64,000 nt of DNA from Escherichia phage pEC-N1203-2Af.1: the sequence record OQ540978.1; one strand, written 5' to 3'. The notes under the pieces are model-generated. The model was not told the origin of the DNA. It saw nothing but the letters and a program-made list of their open reading frames with translations, and made no database searches. Within the stretch, counting starts at the first letter, position 1. The number at the start of each line of letters is the position of its first letter. This document shows positions 6,701-47,284 of this stretch, one piece after another. The position numbers and the translations under genes were made by a program.

Positions 6701-8131
6701 AGCCATCTTCTGTAGTTCAGCAGCTTTCTCTACAAAGTTATTAAAGTCTTCACCATCACGAGCTTTGAATCGATTTGCTTCATTATAGAAAGTCTTGTAA
6801 GCATCAATGAAGTCACGGTCAGCTTGTGTGCGATTCTTAACGTCAAGTGGACTACCGGTGAAGTGTCCAGATGCTCTAAGAGAAGTTAATTCACGGTCTA
6901 GGTTATCTAGAACATCTGTAAGAGCTTTCGTGTTATCCTTGGTGTAGTCAGCCATTGCATCTTTCATAGCAACTGCTTTCTTCTGGTTGTGCTCATTATC
7001 AGCGAATGCTTTACCACGAGTCTTAGCAGGAGAAGCCAAAGGATTGAGTCCCGGAATGTTAGAATGCTCTTTCTGAGCAGAAGCAGCTTTCTCAGCACGA
7101 GCTTGGTCTGTATTAAGAATACGCTGAGCAGCAGGAGAGTCTACAGCAACAGCATCAGTAATACGGAATCCATTCTCATCCAGAAGATTAAGAGCGGAAG
7201 CAGCGTTAGCAGTTTCAGCTTTAGAATAAGCTTCTTTCAGTTCATCAACATTCTTAGCACTTCGAATCAGTTCATCATCAGCAGCAATGTCAGTCTTTGC
7301 ATACTCTGGAGTATTCTTGAAGACAGCAGAATCTGGACGATTAATCAAACCATGAACGCCACCAACTGCACCACCGAATGCAGCACCCATAGCGCCTTCT
7401 TCAATAGCACCTTCTAAGACATTAGCAAAGGTTGTGTCATCACCATGTTTGTTCTGAGCTTCAGCAGCACCAACAAGAGCACCACCTTTAGCACCAGCCA
7501 CTGCGTTACTAGCAACGTTCTGACTGATACGACCAAGTGTAGACTCAGCTGTACCAACAGCACCCGGAAGGATTCTCTGAGCTGCATAGTTAGCACCACC
7601 AACTAGAGCGGCATCCAGAACAGACTTATCTTCTCCCTCTTCAGGAGTTTGGTCTGCATATGCACGACCTGTCTCACGACCTGCAATGATAGCAGCGGCA
7701 GCTAATGGGTTAGCAACAGTCAAACCAATATCACCAACAACGCCAGCATATTGCCCAGCAGTTTTACCAATCCCATCCTCAATCTTATCCATACGTTCTT
7801 TCAGAAGGTTCTGAGAGTTCTCTTGGATACGCTTTCCATAACTAGTTTGTGCTCCAGCTAGATTCTCACCAATCTCAACTAAACCACCAATACCTTTAGC
7901 AGCACTAGCTGCAATATTTGCACCACCAGATTGAAGAGCATTTGACACACCTTGAGCAAACTCACCTATAACACCACGTTCTTCTTGTTGTGGTTGTGCT
8001 ACTGGCTGTTCCTCAGGAATAGAGCCACCTGCTGCCTTATATTGTTCTCTCATTTGAGCTTGCTGCTCCGGAGAGGCATTCAGATACGCAGGAGCTTTGG
8101 AAGCTTCTTCCCACGGTTTAATGTTAGCCAT
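3713..8131 (-). CDS. Large internal virion / ejection protein (coiled-coil rich, 1472 aa)
   Basis: ORF 3713-8176; likely start is ATG at 8131 (MANIKPW) preceded by AAGGAG; Ala/Glu/Lys/Arg-rich coiled-coil composition; last gene of late operon. Confidence 0.55.
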   Translation of the reverse strand: MANIKPWEEASKAPAYLNASPEQQAQMREQYKAAGGSIPEEQPVAQPQQEERGVIGEFAQGVSNALQSGGANIAASAAKGIGGLVEIGENLAGAQTSYGKRIQENSQNLLKERMDKIEDGIGKTAGQYAGVVGDIGLTVANPLAAAAIIAGRETGRAYADQTPEEGEDKSVLDAALVGGANYAAQRILPGAVGTAESTLGRISQNVASNAVAGAKGGALVGAAEAQNKHGDDTTFANVLEGAIEEGAMGAAFGGAVGGVHGLINRPDSAVFKNTPEYAKTDIAADDELIRSAKNVDELKEAYSKAETANAASALNLLDENGFRITDAVAVDSPAAQRILNTDQARAEKAASAQKEHSNIPGLNPLASPAKTRGKAFADNEHNQKKAVAMKDAMADYTKDNTKALTDVLDNLDRELTSLRASGHFTGSPLDVKNRTQADRDFIDAYKTFYNEANRFKARDGEDFNNFVEKAAELQKMAENVSPEMKKAIGGLKKLKGMPEGFNPIQDAYTLNNTAKFMSNQDRGWTSLTDDGFRETSSPSLVMNTLGAAKYALNRFSSQRARSQRVKQQESNSEAIRSLARGDLEVARAKSTVDEARDKMEEEPVVDDIKFKTQNDVETEPVREPSSSTVTEENLPSSAPQEAPLTARDLVAQRRAIRQAEQRRAEEEAAAQEAPVEQSPQAEPLPARNPLEERRAMEQQRAQEEAAQAPEPTVEEPTVKAEPLPARAPKAPEEAVQEVKPESGIEYLAAMSSTARQVAKDRATRFAKSLYSNAAKAKATAENFLAYKGDPLELMRRIRREDNAINTERHEEMARNQRATQKGIATAKNNAVRSEFAEWVKERGLPEDIATKALRAEESGLGGNVTNLESLKRRSERLYQKQREAEFDRLYQEALEENKAFDKKDAPKLVDQKKELQSEIDTLIDSEPLRPAQKDAMRRLMNDFVDGKFKSSEKAGREEALEVGQMKDIWDGFINTYNREVNAFNKANKNSQYEAAAKHLQAREERLATLRNRAQARSDAKAAVENERKTLEAIAAQKSEIEKMMEGLPKPVREAQESRTLKQLAAHHDKNSPVPPEKFRSYIERIHNAESDYLDRQRRLTDAEEDARQAKWNKMYEQAEEMDRKFDIDKRVKRSEELKAAQKRENDLMAVQRQRDDIHRRLMHTLEDKGISKEDAEAFAGSYMDNRYALLDKPMTPTEHQNARSRIEADVEKFAKKYESMTPIEKEIVKITGDTEGKLDNLDADTRKAVEEAQKVDSDIKKLQEEELEMEKIRSALPDDEKSQANSDILESIKQQEEVFADKVEKAFLSGKSLDELASVAEVLDRVHGADKAGNNRRFVRALQTAAENKKKYGDNPVAWFSADDYSAIAKLGASSAGGNKSRALEKIFGSTAEQAKSKLLGRDDVAKMRRVIEENPDIKIPSYKTTNRTEYLKFLEKFNDEGKPKIKRGSLSEKLERSKRQSRLRVRVRPKE

Positions 8132-12706: not shown

Positions 12707-13741
12707 TTATTGTATACTCCTGAATATCTTTCTAGCATCTAATACTGGAATACTTAACCCGAGGGCACCACCCCCTCCTAAATCATATTGACTACTCCAA
12801 GAGTAAATCATCCTTCCGAAACCTGTACCGAAAGAAGAGCCATTCATCATGTGAGATCTTGTGTGTTGAAAATACCAACCACTAGCCTTACCTCTTATTG
12901 CTCCAGCACCATAAGATAGAGGTATCATTGGATAGGCCAAAGATGTGTTACCACCACTCATAGGCATAAATCCCTCAACACTAAAAGGGGTTCTATATGT
13001 AGAAAAAACACACTGAGACCCATTTGGAGAAAAGATATTTAAACCTCCATTGTGGGTTGGTACTCCAGAACCATCACAGAAGACGGCAATTCTAACACCA
13101 CCGATGGACCCTGTTTGGTTTGTGTTACCATTATCATGAGACCTGTTCTGGTACACATAAACAACCCTGTTGGATGGATTGTATAGTAGACCTGCTCCGC
13201 CGTTACTCCAATTCGCGTAGACAGTTGCTCGGCTCATATCAAAACCACCAATATCTGGTATTTGAAGAGCACCATGTATGTCACCCTCCCAAGCCCAAAT
13301 ACATTGACCAACAACTCCAGAATCAGAGATTGAGAAATAGTCAGCAGAGTTGGAGAATGTGATTCCATAGTTCCTATTAGCTCTAGGCCATATTTGATAT
13401 ACATTAAAAGCCATATCAAATACCCAACCGTTTACGTTATAGTCCATAGTAACTCTGAAGGTTGAGTTATTAATAACAGATATATCCGTTATCCAATACA
13501 CATCAGACGTTACATTAGGAGGTATGTATCTCTCCCAAACAACAGACCCTGTTGGGACTACAACTATCTGACCACTTCCATCCCAACCGCTTATAGGCAA
13601 GTCACAGGTATTTCCACTAAAAGAGAAATTCCCACTTACCCTATTTCTGAGTTGAGGGAAAGTGCTACCACTGTCAATGTAAATATCAGCAGGTGCCGCT
13701 GGACCCGGACCGACCGGGCTTGTCCATATTCCATATGCCAT
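12707..13741 (-). CDS. Hypothetical virion (tail-associated) protein
   Basis: ORF 344 aa, Gly/Ser/Asn-rich, in tail gene block. Confidence 0.4.
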   Translation of the reverse strand: MAYGIWTSPVGPGPAAPADIYIDSGSTFPQLRNRVSGNFSFSGNTCDLPISGWDGSGQIVVVPTGSVVWERYIPPNVTSDVYWITDISVINNSTFRVTMDYNVNGWVFDMAFNVYQIWPRANRNYGITFSNSADYFSISDSGVVGQCIWAWEGDIHGALQIPDIGGFDMSRATVYANWSNGGAGLLYNPSNRVVYVYQNRSHDNGNTNQTGSIGGVRIAVFCDGSGVPTHNGGLNIFSPNGSQCVFSTYRTPFSVEGFMPMSGGNTSLAYPMIPLSYGAGAIRGKASGWYFQHTRSHMMNGSSFGTGFGRMIYSWSSQYDLGGGGALGLSIPVLDARKIFRSIQ

Positions 13742-13742
13742 G

Positions 13743-14777
13743 TTACCAACTCCCTATTCTTATGCGAAGAGTTCCACTCCCATCATAAAAATCTATTCTA
13801 TTACCGTTCATCCATAACTGAGAACCGCCTGTACCACCCATAACAAAATCACCACCAACAGTAAGCCTCCAGTTAGAACCCCACATAGAACCAGCAGTAA
13901 TCTTATCCGCTGACAAGTTCTGAATTTGAGCGTTGGAAATAGATACGTTGTCTATCTGTGCCCATTGGATTCTGGCGTTGGCGATCTGAGCCGTTGTGAT
14001 GTTGACGTTCTTTATGTCAGCGAACTCCATCCTAGCTCTTCCACCCTCAAACACAAAAGGGGTATTACCAGAGCTGCCATCACCAACAATAAACTTGTTA
14101 GCTGTTACTTGGAATTGACTGTTTGTTCCGTTGTTAGTTAACTTGACCCCAGCATATCTTCCGTTGACTGTAGAGTTAACTCCCCATGTAGCTTCATACT
14201 CAGAAAGCTTCATATACTGAGATAGGCTTCCATTAATATTTTGAATCTCTGTCTGAACTAAAGCAATCTCTTGACCTTGGTCGTTAACAATCCCTTCTAC
14301 CGTTTGAATCTTAGTTGTGTTACCTTCAATACTTGTTTTAAAGCCAGATACAGTGCTTTCTAATTTTACAGGAGGTTGAACAGAATTATCCCAAATATCT
14401 TCAGTGGAGAGGTTCCCCATCTGTGTTATAATATCTGCAATAGCTGTCTCTATCTCTGTAGTAATTCTATTCTCAAGCTCATCAAATTGTAAGTTCATCG
14501 CATGAAGAGCTTTGATACGAACATCAATCTCATCATGAATCTCATCAATAGCTTGGAACATTTGGTTAGTAGCTGTACTAACTTTCTGTAGCTCGTCATA
14601 TACGGCTACGTTATATGTTTCTGTGTCCTGTACATTATTGAGAAACCCAACGTTGTACGGAAGTGTGGTGTTATTACGACCAGTGTTCTTACGAAAACCA
14701 CCTGCACCCATAAGTTCCTCCAAAACAATAAAAGGGGCACGAAGCCCCTTGTTGTTATCTCCGTCCGCCAACAGCAA
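13743..14777 (-). CDS. Tail fibre-like protein
   Basis: ORF 344 aa; N-terminal coiled coil, C-terminal repetitive NAQI/beta-rich segment typical of fibre tips. Confidence 0.4.
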   Translation of the reverse strand: MLLADGDNNKGLRAPFIVLEELMGAGGFRKNTGRNNTTLPYNVGFLNNVQDTETYNVAVYDELQKVSTATNQMFQAIDEIHDEIDVRIKALHAMNLQFDELENRITTEIETAIADIITQMGNLSTEDIWDNSVQPPVKLESTVSGFKTSIEGNTTKIQTVEGIVNDQGQEIALVQTEIQNINGSLSQYMKLSEYEATWGVNSTVNGRYAGVKLTNNGTNSQFQVTANKFIVGDGSSGNTPFVFEGGRARMEFADIKNVNITTAQIANARIQWAQIDNVSISNAQIQNLSADKITAGSMWGSNWRLTVGGDFVMGGTGGSQLWMNGNRIDFYDGSGTLRIRIGSW

Positions 14778-43957: not shown

Positions 43958-43963
43958 AAGAAA

Positions 43964-43992
43964 GGCTGCCTTCGGGTGGCCTTTGTTGTTTT
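43964..43992 (+). terminator. Rho-independent terminator (UUCG tetraloop)
   Basis: GGCUGCC-UUCG-GGUGGCC followed by UUUGUUGUUUU. Confidence 0.65.
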
Positions 43993-44163
43993 AATTAAGG
44001 GACAACTCTTACTTAAACTAACAACGGGTGTATGGTATTGACAGGCATCGGCATGGAACTTGTTACCAACAAGGTTGGCGAATCAAGACCTCTGTGAAGC
44101 TCCGAAGAAATCAAGGCAGGTTCGACTCCTGCTCCCCGACCAAATTAACAATAGGAAGCTCAA

Positions 44164-45214: not shown

Positions 45215-45523
45215 GTGAAACAAAAGCATTTTATCATCTCAACCTTACTACTAATGACAACCATTGGTATCATCTCTGTTAATAGTGCAGAGATTGGAGT
45301 TAAGTATCAGAGTGTTCAGCAATGCACTCTTAAAGAGCATAGCTTAACTGGTATCAAAGAATCTCATGGTATGGTAAGAGATGGGCTTCTGTTTGTAGAA
45401 ACAACTTCTGGTAATCGTGTCATGGCTACTGATGGCAAAGAAACAAAGTATGCCTACTTCCCTGATACAACAGGCTACTACACTTTTGAAGAGAAGGATT
45501 GTAAGAAGTCTTTCTCTTTATAA
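45215..45523 (+). CDS. Secreted protein with signal peptide
   Basis: ORF 102 aa; MKQKHFIISTLLLMTTIGIISVNSAEIG. Confidence 0.5.
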   Translation: MKQKHFIISTLLLMTTIGIISVNSAEIGVKYQSVQQCTLKEHSLTGIKESHGMVRDGLLFVETTSGNRVMATDGKETKYAYFPDTTGYYTFEEKDCKKSFSL

Positions 45524-45532
45524 AAGAATCAA

Positions 45533-45607
45533 GTCCCTATAGTTAAAAGGATATAACAGATTTCTTCTAAAAATCCATTCTAGGTTCGAGTCCTAGTGGG
45601 GACGCCA
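45533..45607 (+). tRNA. tRNA-Arg (anticodon UCU), CCA encoded
   Basis: Manual cloverleaf: acceptor GUCCCUA/UGGGGAC, D-stem GUUA/UAAC, anticodon stem GAUUU/AAAUC with loop CUUCUAA, T-arm CUAGG-UUCGAGU-CCUAG, discriminator G, CCA. Confidence 0.8.
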
Positions 45608-45626
45608 AATCAAATAGGAGGTGGTT

Positions 45627-45926
45627 ATGAGTTGGGGTGGTGTAATTACCTTAACCTGTATCTTTATCGCCTGTGTAGCTCTTACAGGCTGCGTACAGCA
45701 TCGTCCTGATGGATGGTGTGCAGTAGCAGTGGATGGTATTTGTGTTTCTCGCTGGCATAAAGGTGAGAAGATTCCTTCTGGTGAAATTGATATGCGCTGG
45801 AACGGAGCAACCTGCTCCAATGCTAACCCTTCTATCAACGAAGAGGAGTCTACGCCAGACAATGTTGTGATTGATACAGCGTTGTGGTGTGGTGGCTCTA
45901 CGACTACAACCGGTAAGGAGTGGTAA
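45627..45926 (+). CDS. Putative lipoprotein (candidate superinfection-exclusion factor)
   Basis: ORF 45621-45926; ATG 45627 after AGGAGG; signal peptide ending in lipobox-like LTGC; Cys-rich mature part. Confidence 0.45.
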   Translation: MSWGGVITLTCIFIACVALTGCVQHRPDGWCAVAVDGICVSRWHKGEKIPSGEIDMRWNGATCSNANPSINEEESTPDNVVIDTALWCGGSTTTTGKEW

Positions 45927-45927
45927 T

Positions 45928-46176
45928 ATGACAGCTCATTATTGGAATACAAAGAAGCTTCTTGAAGAGATGGCTGGGGGTAGTAGAGTACAACTAATCT
46001 CTATGCTTCGAATGGATGCTCGCTCTTTACGCTTTCAAGTGAAGATCGGTAACTTCAGTGATGGTCTTTATTATACCTTGAAGGAAAGGATTAAGAAGAC
46101 TCACTTCATCATGTACGGACTCAAACCGAGAACGTACGTTAACTACATGTATTGGGATACATGCTACGATAATTGA
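45928..46176 (+). CDS. Hypothetical protein
   Basis: Within ORF 45871-46176; ATG 45928 (MTAHYW) preceded by TAAGGAG. Confidence 0.4.
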   Translation: MTAHYWNTKKLLEEMAGGSRVQLISMLRMDARSLRFQVKIGNFSDGLYYTLKERIKKTHFIMYGLKPRTYVNYMYWDTCYDN

Positions 46177-46183
46177 GGGTGTT

Positions 46184-46405
46184 ATGATATTCGAAGCCAA
46201 GCAAACATTGCCGGTAGTTCCTTTGTCTACACTTCTTAGTGGGAGTGCTTTTAGACATGATAACGGTTTTTGGATTAAAGGAAACCAAGAGGTTGGAGGA
46301 TATATCACCTGCATCAATATCTGCAATGGTGTTGTTGAGGTAAAGCGTCCAGCCGCTGAAGTAACTCCTCAACCCAATGCAAAGGTTGTAGGTTTGGTAT
46401 ATTAA
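46184..46405 (+). CDS. Small paralogous early protein, family member 5
   Basis: ORF 73 aa; very similar to 46415-46636 (shared FWIK...GYITC.N..NG...P.AKV.PQP.AK..GLVY). Confidence 0.55.
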   Translation: MIFEAKQTLPVVPLSTLLSGSAFRHDNGFWIKGNQEVGGYITCINICNGVVEVKRPAAEVTPQPNAKVVGLVY

Positions 46406-46414
46406 GGAACTTAT

Positions 46415-46636
46415 ATGAAATTAGATTCTAAACAATCCCTTAAAACTGTTGAACTGTCCACACTGCCAAACGGAAGTATCTTTGGTCACGATAAACACTT
46501 CTGGATTAAAACAGACTACTTGAACGATGGGTATATCACCTGTGTCAACCTTTGGAATGGTTCAGTGGATGGTTATCGCCCTAATGCAAAGGTAATCCCT
46601 CAGCCTGATGCAAAGGCTACAGGTTTAGTTTACTAA
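46415..46636 (+). CDS. Small paralogous early protein, family member 6 (tandem duplicate of member 5)
   Basis: ORF 73 aa; near-colinear with 46184-46405. Confidence 0.55.
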   Translation: MKLDSKQSLKTVELSTLPNGSIFGHDKHFWIKTDYLNDGYITCVNLWNGSVDGYRPNAKVIPQPDAKATGLVY

Positions 46637-47252: not shown

Positions 47253-47284
47253 GGGAGGATTCGTCCCCTCCCCCTATTTTATTG
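47253..47284 (+). terminator. Hairpin/terminator
   Basis: GGGAGG-AUUCGUCC-CCUCCC followed by CUAUUUUAUUG. Confidence 0.4.

Follow-up and report, generated by a model that had tools for sequence, protein, structure and literature searches.

Rtp45, the superinfection-exclusion (SE) lipoprotein of siphophage Rtp, is bound from the periplasmic side to Shigella LptDE, near strands 5-8; it contains a Cys30-Cys38 disulphide, its long hairpin runs up the LptD lumen and shifts extracellular loop 4 (EL4) outward by up to 20 A, so that the phage receptor-binding protein (RBP) cannot bind, and it is the closed state of LptDE that Rtp45 binds, blocking the EL4 movement that is required for the open state (PMC12685063). 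The SE protein of Oekolampad, which like Rtp is an LptD-associated phage, is 35% identical to Rtp45 (PMC12685063). Oekolampad and TheodorHerzl depend experimentally on LptD (BASEL I), the structure of the DUF6453 protein of Oekolampad (RBP_Oeko) has been solved on LptDE, and the BASEL papers refer to the arrangement of a PF24052 lipoprotein gene, a DUF6453 gene and J as the "bona fide RBP locus". Here, we have analysed a stretch of 64,000 nucleotides of Escherichia phage pEC-N1203-2Af.1 (record OQ540978.1), which we refer to as the window, where a tRNA-Arg(UCU) gene is directly followed by the gene of a small lipoprotein; we have found that this lipoprotein belongs to the family of Rtp45, and we consider it probable, by analogy with Rtp45, that it resides in the outer membrane, binds LptDE on its periplasmic side and keeps out phages that depend on LptD.

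By its sequence, the window is that of a Kuravirus, a phiEco32-like podophage of E. coli: around the tRNA and the lipoprotein gene, its identity to phiEco32-like E. coli podophages (Kuravirus, Gordonclarkvirinae) amounts to 87-97%, the nearest relative of this region being NJ01, with 97.5%.

Membership of the Rtp45 family is established by profile, sequence and structure comparisons. The protein matches Pfam PF24052 ("Phage lipoprotein family") with 118 bits against a cutoff of 27 bits (E=1.4e-34), the match spanning residues 3-99 and profile positions 1-80/80, and it falls in PHROG 4281 together with bas14_0026 of TheodorHerzl, a protein near-identical to Rtp45 that provides the link to the Rtp45 group. 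Against the Protein Data Bank (PDB), phmmer matches the lipoprotein to Rtp45 (9RPS_D) at E=3.6e-14, a family profile of 42 sequences matches Rtp45 end to end at E=3.7e-29, and the AlphaFold2 (AF2) model of the lipoprotein (pLDDT 80) has 9RPS_D as its sole significant match (E=9e-4, TM 0.77 on the target). A hand count of the 40 positions between the anchor Cys and G60 gives about 19 identities with Rtp45, so that this core is closer to Rtp45 than is the SE protein of Oekolampad, with its 35% identity. The lipoprotein keeps the core motif RPDGWC-x7-C...W..G..P.GE.D.R..G and, at its C-terminus, KEW; C31 and C39, which align to the two cysteines of the Rtp45 disulphide, are invariant in the 42 family members, as are the core columns G29 and G52. 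Since the PF24052 match reaches E=1.4e-34 and full-length copies occur in 96 phage records, the lipoprotein open reading frame (ORF) is, on sequence grounds, a real gene. Armadillo-repeat matches in the PDB are weak, with no stretch passing alone, and have been rejected as spurious.

The first-pass annotation had placed an ORF with a signal peptide and an LTGC lipobox directly downstream of the tRNA, and this has been borne out, with the phage lipoprotein family PF24052 as the identity of the product. The ORF starts at the ATG at 45627, 19 bases after the CCA of the tRNA, and its stop codon occupies 45924-45926; the program-made ORF list opens it at the GTG at 45621 instead, but we prefer the ATG because it has a ribosome-binding site, a strong one, AGGAGG (45616-45621), located five nucleotides (nt) before it. 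The leader reads MSWGGVITLTCIFIACVALTG followed by C, with a hydrophobic stretch of 15 residues before the LTGC lipobox, which agrees with the pattern [LVI][ASTVI][GAS]C with the Cys within residues 15-35; G21 and C22 are invariant in an alignment of 11 sequences and at least 90% conserved in the alignment of 42. Lipidation is predicted from these features, with C22 as the putative lipid anchor and a mature lipoprotein of 78 residues, 8.5 kDa and isoelectric point 4.7. The residue at position +2, after Cys22, is Val; by the +2 rule, Val at this position directs sorting to the outer membrane, and since this is the residue found, the lipoprotein would go to the outer membrane. The precursor contains seven cysteines, of which two are located in the leader, one is the anchor Cys22, and four belong to the mature protein (C31, C39, C63, C88). 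The extra pair C63 and C88 brackets an insert, A61-C88, that varies between alleles and falls at the tip of the last beta-hairpin that the AF2 model predicts (strands 52-65 and 86-98).

We infer LptDE, and not FhuA, as the target because of the homology to Rtp45 and the lack of a detectable sequence relationship to T5 Llp or Cor. In the proposed mechanism, the disulphide-stabilised core of the lipoprotein would dock on the periplasmic side of LptDE, while the beta-hairpin would reach up the LptD lumen and displace or lock EL4, so that RBPs that need open LptD could not bind; the infected cell and its debris would then become refractory to LptD-dependent phages, among which the Kuravirus itself might be counted, with LptD as its terminal receptor. 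For complexes of this type with LptDE, AlphaFold 3 (AF3) models have been reported as wrong by the authors of the structures (PMC12685063).

The lipoprotein has also pointed us to a second gene without an assigned function, which belongs to the family of the LptD-binding RBPs. Three siphophage RBPs, used as tblastn queries, match the window at one place (12794-13636, minus strand; bas14_0025 at E=3e-13). The ORF at this place matches Pfam PF20051 (DUF6453) with 87.8 bits against a cutoff of 25 and PHROG 1265 at E=8e-106, the PHROG that also contains the TheodorHerzl RBP; it matches RBP_Oeko (9RPT_C) in sequence at E=7.6e-9, and its AF2 model (pLDDT 84.7, pTM 0.85), when compared by Foldseek, has 9RPT_C as its sole significant PDB match (E=3e-12, TM 0.78 on the target). 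Because it is located between the tail needle gene, which directly precedes it, and the gene of the transglycosylase ejection protein, which directly follows, we identify it as the homologue of SU10 gp19. The needle itself carries a lambda-J-type Phage_Tail_Tip domain, is covered by PHROG 16534 at residues 23-344, and aligns to the C-terminal part of J of T1 and TheodorHerzl; its translation probably begins at the Met at 14711, which gives a protein of 322 residues. The coordinates of these features are collected in Table 1.

Table 1. Features of the window around the lipoprotein gene and around the proposed cognate RBP gene, with the basis of each assignment.
Feature	Position	Strand	Basis
Lipoprotein precursor coding sequence, 99 residues, PF24052/Rtp45 family	45627-45926	+	Pfam, PHROG 4281, PDB 9RPS_D
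Signal peptide (residues 1-21) and lipobox L19-T20-G21-C22	45627-45692	+	Translation, alignments
Conserved core C22-G60, RPDGWC..G.C..W..G..P.GE.D.R..G	45690-45806	+	HMMER alignment to 9RPS_D
Insert A61-C88, specific to the Kuravirus lineage and a few metagenomic relatives	45807-45890	+	Alignments, AF2 model
tRNA-Arg(UCU) gene, 75 nt	45533-45607	+	ARAGORN, Rfam RF00005, sequence
19-nt spacer, including Shine-Dalgarno AGGAGG 45616-45621	45608-45626	+	Alignment of window, NJ01, SGF2 and Bas91
DUF6453 protein, 344 residues, SU10 gp19 homologue, proposed cognate RBP	12707-13741	-	tblastn, Pfam PF20051, PHROG 1265, AF2/Foldseek
Tail needle, SU10 gp18 homologue, 98% identical	13743-14777	-	Pfam PF09327 E=1e-26, PHROG 16534, SU10 map

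The window and SU10 are 98% identical in the needle and 97% in gp20, but 62% in gp19, where the boundaries of the DNA identity coincide sharply with the ends of the ORF and the first 30 residues are conserved; in this comparison, gp19 has the signature of an exchangeable host-range cassette. In a phage database of 50,697 records, a full-length nozzle occurs in 98 records, a gp19-like protein in 98 and a full-length lipoprotein in 96; judged by host names only, neither the gp19 nor the lipoprotein list includes the relatives from Salmonella and Aeromonas, whose nozzle is homologous in part. DUF6453 proteins are widely annotated as "membrane protein", and phrog_1265 is placed in the category "moron, auxiliary metabolic gene and host takeover"; these labels are misleading, because the structure of RBP_Oeko on LptDE has been solved. 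In a full-text literature search, DUF6453 has turned up in one paper, on the E. coli podophage TR1. The structure paper of SU10 and its supplement make no mention of gp19, and the description of YF01 skips it (PMC9965538).

That the phage excluded is the Kuravirus itself is possible, on inference only, and we put it forward as tentative; we draw it from the fact that the same genome contains a protein of the DUF6453 RBP family after a J-like needle. The corresponding proposal for the whole group, which we hold with marginally more confidence though still short of an even balance, is that Gordonclarkvirinae may use LptD as their terminal receptor: gp19, located on the needle, would engage LptD, and the early lipoprotein would then close LptD from the periplasm against self-superinfection and against the loss of progeny on debris, the siphophage module of RBP and SE protein having been split and moved onto a podovirus needle. 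Self-exclusion is favoured by the joint conservation of both halves of the siphophage module (98 and 96 records), by the location of gp19 at the position of a central-fibre RBP, by its RBP-like evolution, and by the model of SU10, where contact of the needle with the outer membrane is the trigger; the receptors of SU10 are described as not identified (PMC10743462).

Several observations weigh against self-exclusion. The Kuravirus-resistant mutants that have been reported had lost O-antigen, and the published Kuravirus receptors are O-antigen and possibly the core of the lipopolysaccharide (LPS) (PMC11990801). SU10 gp19 is not among the 34 proteins detected by mass spectrometry (MS), while gp16-18 and gp20-24 are (PMC4281155, Table 2), and it is absent from the description of the SU10 virion by cryo-electron microscopy; at 1-3 copies, such a protein could have escaped detection. 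The gp19 homologue is only about 25% identical to the proven LptD binders, and the hit tables for Kuraviruses contain no strict pairing of lipoprotein alleles (types of 99, 93 and 108 residues) with gp19 alleles: in XT18, O18-011 and YF01, a lipoprotein of the window type is combined with a gp19 that is 62% identical. In the BASEL work, lptD mutants were used on the phage collection of BASEL I itself, and BASEL II, in its available part, describes glycan and immunity phenotyping (PMC11990801). A full-text literature search has returned no link between LptD and Kuravirus beyond BASEL II, in the available part of which LptD is discussed for Dhillonvirus only.

The action on LptDE as such also has points against it. 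The leader contains no K or R (and no D or E) in residues 1-21, departing from the classical lipoprotein signature; this K/R-less n-region is conserved in all Kuravirus copies, whereas the siphophage homologues carry MKK or MKT. Compared with Rtp45, the protein adds an allele-variable insert of 17-32 residues and the extra Cys pair, both absent from Rtp45, and this Kuravirus insert could alter the target or the geometry of the lipoprotein. Lastly, the PF24052 gene of the window is not linked to the DUF6453 gene, about 32 kb away, unlike every siphophage case: its neighbours are the tRNA gene and small early ORFs, and the siphophage cassette is not formed.

In the siphophages, by comparison, a DUF6453 gene (311-343 residues) comes immediately after the PF24052 gene, the pair being convergent with J, in 9/9 of the loci examined (TheodorHerzl, pSf-2, mEp515, phiEB49, vB_EcoS_FP, phiKP26, AV106, 26046III and "Campylobacter" phage A131). 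T1, which uses FhuA, has Cor in the slot of the PF24052 gene and has no DUF6453 gene; its only match to the PF24052 family is the signal peptide of Cor, against the N-terminal 53 residues of the pSf-2 protein. In T1 Cor (locus L007, 29623-29850) and pSf-2 gp20 (locus L004, 3992-4222), the signal peptides are nearly identical (MKKLITII.AAFILTGC), but no relationship exists between the mature domains, which suggests that the cassettes for exclusion at FhuA and at LptD have been exchanged at the lipobox. Unlinked PF24052 and DUF6453 genes also occur in Klebsiella Weberviruses and, probably, in a 100-kb metagenomic phage, where the two proteins are assigned to one genome because their longest contigs are equal in length; the Weberviruses may engage LptD too. 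In Klebsiella phage FZ10 (locus L006, 3995-4222) and other Weberviruses, the annotation wrongly calls the Rtp45-family lipoprotein a "PDDEXK-like family protein", and the DUF6453 gene of Weberviruses is seen in other genomes, such as RCIP0010. The record of "Campylobacter phage A131" (MG065665, locus L014), which is marked UNVERIFIED, is a Drexlerviridae genome with an SE and DUF6453 cassette of the E. coli type, and its Campylobacter host label is probably wrong.

Among the alternatives to self-exclusion, the one that survives best is that the exclusion is heterotypic only, i.e. that the lipoprotein binds LptDE and shuts out competing LptD siphophages (Rtp-like phages, Dhillonvirus, Tunavirinae), while the Kuravirus enters through glycans and gp19 has another role or ligand. 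It would agree with published receptors that consist of O-antigen and, probably, LPS core (PMC11990801), with the failure to detect gp19 in SU10 virions, with the separate location of the two genes and the lack of co-variation of their alleles, and with the abundance of LptD-type siphophages in the same habitats (sewage, E. coli hosts). We nevertheless consider it rather unlikely: essentially every E. coli or Shigella Gordonclarkvirinae record has both genes (gp19 in 98/98, the lipoprotein in 96/98), gp19, after the J-like needle, occupies the exact place that is expected for a central-fibre RBP and evolves as an exchangeable cassette, and the PF24052 and DUF6453 families are a functional pair everywhere else that we have examined.

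Alternatively, exclusion might not be the purpose for which the lipoprotein binds LptDE, or some other outer-membrane protein; in the infected cell it could, for example, freeze the export of LPS and O-antigen or weaken the outer membrane. The block that Rtp45 places on EL4 movement and on the open LptDE state could in principle impede LPS insertion, and the Kuravirus-specific insert may confer some other activity; we give this reading a slight chance, as the good over-expression of Rtp45 along with LptDE in E. coli speaks against strong toxicity (PMC12685063), and the PF24052 family is otherwise tied to RBP cassettes, with no evidence for another target. The chance that the lipoprotein blocks FhuA in the manner of T5 Llp or Cor is close to nil, and this reading is refuted at the level of sequence: only generic features fit it (a small, early-expressed lipoprotein with cysteines), the protein and its family profile have no match at E<=10 to Llp (8A60_B and 7QJF_A, both in the PDB set), Cor belongs to PHROG 1119 and gives no BLASTP alignment with the lipoprotein at E<=100 in T1, and T1, which relies on FhuA and Cor, lacks both the mature domain of the PF24052 family and a DUF6453 gene. 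Thus, of the suggestion in the first-pass annotation that this is a receptor-blocking lipoprotein with T5 Llp as precedent, the concept stands, through the homology to Rtp45, but the Llp precedent does not. An o-spanin of the Rz1-like type has been rejected by gene context, as the holin and the endolysin are located in the late module (SU10 synteny, gp14 and gp15); the ORFs that adjoin the lipoprotein gene contain no membrane anchor.

We now turn from the lipoprotein to the tRNA gene that precedes it. The 75-nt cloverleaf with anticodon UCU that had been read from the sequence has been confirmed by two programs: ARAGORN, run over the 64-kb window, calls exactly one tRNA, a tRNA-Arg(TCT) with the anticodon at position 34, and Rfam RF00005 gives it 57 bits, the gathering score being 29 (E=6e-11, model positions 1-71/71). 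The acceptor stem has 7 bp, the discriminator is the G at 45604, and the CCA is encoded at 45605-45607. Plain minimum free energy (MFE) folding of the gene gives no cloverleaf (z=-2.0), because the D and anticodon stems are A/U-rich; we have taken the covariance model, which the gene passes, as the relevant test. Arginyl-tRNA synthetase recognises A20, C35 and a purine discriminator as identity elements. In the Rfam alignment, the D-loop AAAGGAuA has an A after G18-G19, C35 is present and the discriminator is G, so that by these elements the tRNA would accept arginine.

The expected use by the phage of codons that are rare in the host also holds. In the window, AGA occurs 11.3 and AGG 4.6 times per 1000 codons (together 15.9, or 31% of Arg codons), figures that are approximate because they come from a greedy ORF set that includes a few spurious ORFs, and that took the antisense ORF 45593-45952 rather than the lipoprotein gene; in E. 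coli K-12, sampled through 65 annotated coding sequences of a 49-kb stretch, the values are 1.8 and 1.2 (together 3.0, or 5% of Arg codons), so that the two codons are about five times commoner in the phage than in this sample. The tRNA looks functional and would add decoding capacity for AGA, and for AGG through wobble. This half of the original observation is correct, but it is textbook and already known: the match between tRNA-Arg(UCU) and high AGA use was described earlier for Kuravirus YF01, in a paper whose table lists one tRNA for essentially every member of the group (PMC9965538).

At least three very different tRNA-Arg(UCU) alleles, with pairwise identities of 56-67%, occur at this locus among Kuraviruses. 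Besides the window allele, we have located those of SGF2 (locus L001, 2707-2782) and Bas91 (locus L008, 6645-6720), to which the window allele is 56-65% identical; the exact window allele is found in 6 records only, and its nearest match outside the group is the tRNA-Arg of 167-kb Klebsiella myophages (77%). The junction between the tRNA and the lipoprotein gene, CCAAATC[A/T]AATAGGAG..GTTATG, is kept even where the body of the tRNA has been replaced, as the alignment of the window, NJ01, SGF2 and Bas91 reveals. In Bas91, a homing endonuclease (locus L008, 6232-6654) and a different tRNA-Arg are located upstream, and a leftover tRNA 3' half, CTGGTTCGATTCCAGATAGTCCACCA (locus L008, about 6820-6850), is found directly before the lipoprotein gene, just upstream of its ribosome-binding site; this sequence arrangement suggests that the tRNA was replaced through an insertion associated with the endonuclease. 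At 44114-44143 on the plus strand, the window contains a comparable leftover, GCAGGTTCGACTCCTGCTCCCCGACCA, with the T-arm, the acceptor strand and the CCA of a tRNA 3' half; it is followed by AATTAACAATAGGAAG...ATG, in the junction style of the real tRNA; it is called by neither ARAGORN nor Rfam.

Phage tRNAs that evade tRNA-targeting defences are known, and repeated replacement is what an arms race could produce; the divergent alleles over a conserved 3' junction, the tie of one allele to a homing endonuclease and the leftover 3' halves would all suit a tRNA that mainly replaces a host tRNA-Arg cut by an anticodon nuclease or other defence, rather than one that matches codons. We allow this reading a small chance, as the codon-usage match, in our own count as in the published one (PMC9965538), is strong and sufficient, and the anticodon loop CUUCUAA is identical in the window, SGF2 and Bas91 alleles.

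The early-region setting that had been proposed for both genes is upheld by synteny with the early class of phiEco32 and SU10. [quoted passage not shown] The two adjacent genes of this early region are probably co-transcribed, and terminator-like hairpins at 43961-43984 and 47253-47272 flank the block that holds them; a scan for sigma-70 promoters between 43.5 and 47.5 kb has given 9 sites against 10.3 expected, from which no promoter can be claimed.

Just 5' of the tRNA, an ORF of 102 residues (45215-45523, plus strand) encodes a Sec-type signal peptide (MKQKHFIISTLLLMTTIGIISVNSA followed by EIG) and two Cys residues and belongs to PHROG 23590; among the loci examined, its homologue is found in NJ01 only (99% identical), SGF2 having no counterpart at this position and Bas91 a homing endonuclease instead. 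NCBIfam gives no match for this ORF, the lipoprotein or the gp19 homologue. Downstream, two tandem paralogous ORFs of 73 residues (46184-46405 and 46415-46636, plus strand; PHROG 6570) are about 45% identical and share the motifs LSTL..GS.F.HD..FWIK...GYITC.N..NG and PQP.AK..GLVY. In NJ01 (JX867715), the tRNA (locus L002, 3034-3108) and the lipoprotein gene (locus L002, 3128-3424) are both present and both unannotated, as they are in several other Kuravirus records.

A lipoprotein that is labelled "hypothetical" in almost all of about 96 Kuravirus genomes is thus given a structure-backed candidate mechanism, the blockade of LptDE by analogy with Rtp45. The value of the finding is a testable prediction, by which LptD would be the receptor that has been missing for Kuraviruses. 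These phages are often considered for therapy of infections with pathogenic E. coli, and the literature describes their secondary receptor as unidentified. If the prediction were true, it would explain why the resistance mutants lose only O-antigen, because LptD is essential; the interest in LptD for "phage steering" would extend to a second virion architecture, and modules of RBP and exclusion protein would move between siphophages and podophages.

Compared with known systems, the tRNA is the most conventional element of the locus. Its anticodon is that of the tRNA-Arg(UCU) of YF01, phiEco32, T4-like phages and E. coli argU, and A20, C35 and the discriminator G are likewise present; unlike those genes, the window allele is A/U-rich. 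We take E. coli argU to be about 59% identical to it, with an anticodon loop that presumably matches CUUCUAA. The gp19 homologue is a full-length member of the family of siphophage LptD-binding RBPs (RBP_Oeko, 9RPT/9RPW/9RQI chain C; Rtp44; bas14_0025), with the same predicted fold, a common N-terminal MAxGI motif and a location downstream of a J-type tail-tip protein, but at the low identity given above, and its gene shares the strand of the needle gene and is part of the late operon. With T5 Llp, the lipoprotein is alike in concept only, as a small early outer-membrane lipoprotein that would act periplasmically on a phage receptor; Llp acts on the TonB-dependent transporter FhuA through long-range allostery, whereas Rtp45 physically displaces loops of LptD. 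Cor (T1, phi80, N15), whose receptor is FhuA, occupies the genomic slot of the PF24052 gene in T1-like phages, and its mature domain is unrelated to that of the PF24052 protein. With Rtp45 (UniProt Q333D9) and SE_Oeko (bas18_0026 of Dhillonvirus Oekolampad), in contrast, the lipoprotein has in common PF24052, PHROG 4281 (through the TheodorHerzl protein), the lipobox leader, the core motif, the disulphide pair and the C-terminal KEW. It differs from Rtp45 in its podovirus origin, in a leader without K or R, and in its genomic setting: the siphophage gene is part of a two-gene cassette that is convergent with J, while the window gene is an early-region gene beside a tRNA, 32 kb from the DUF6453 gene. 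These comparisons of sequence and gene order make the lipoprotein a new Rtp45-family member, encoded by a podophage, unlinked from its RBP-family partner and bearing an insert.

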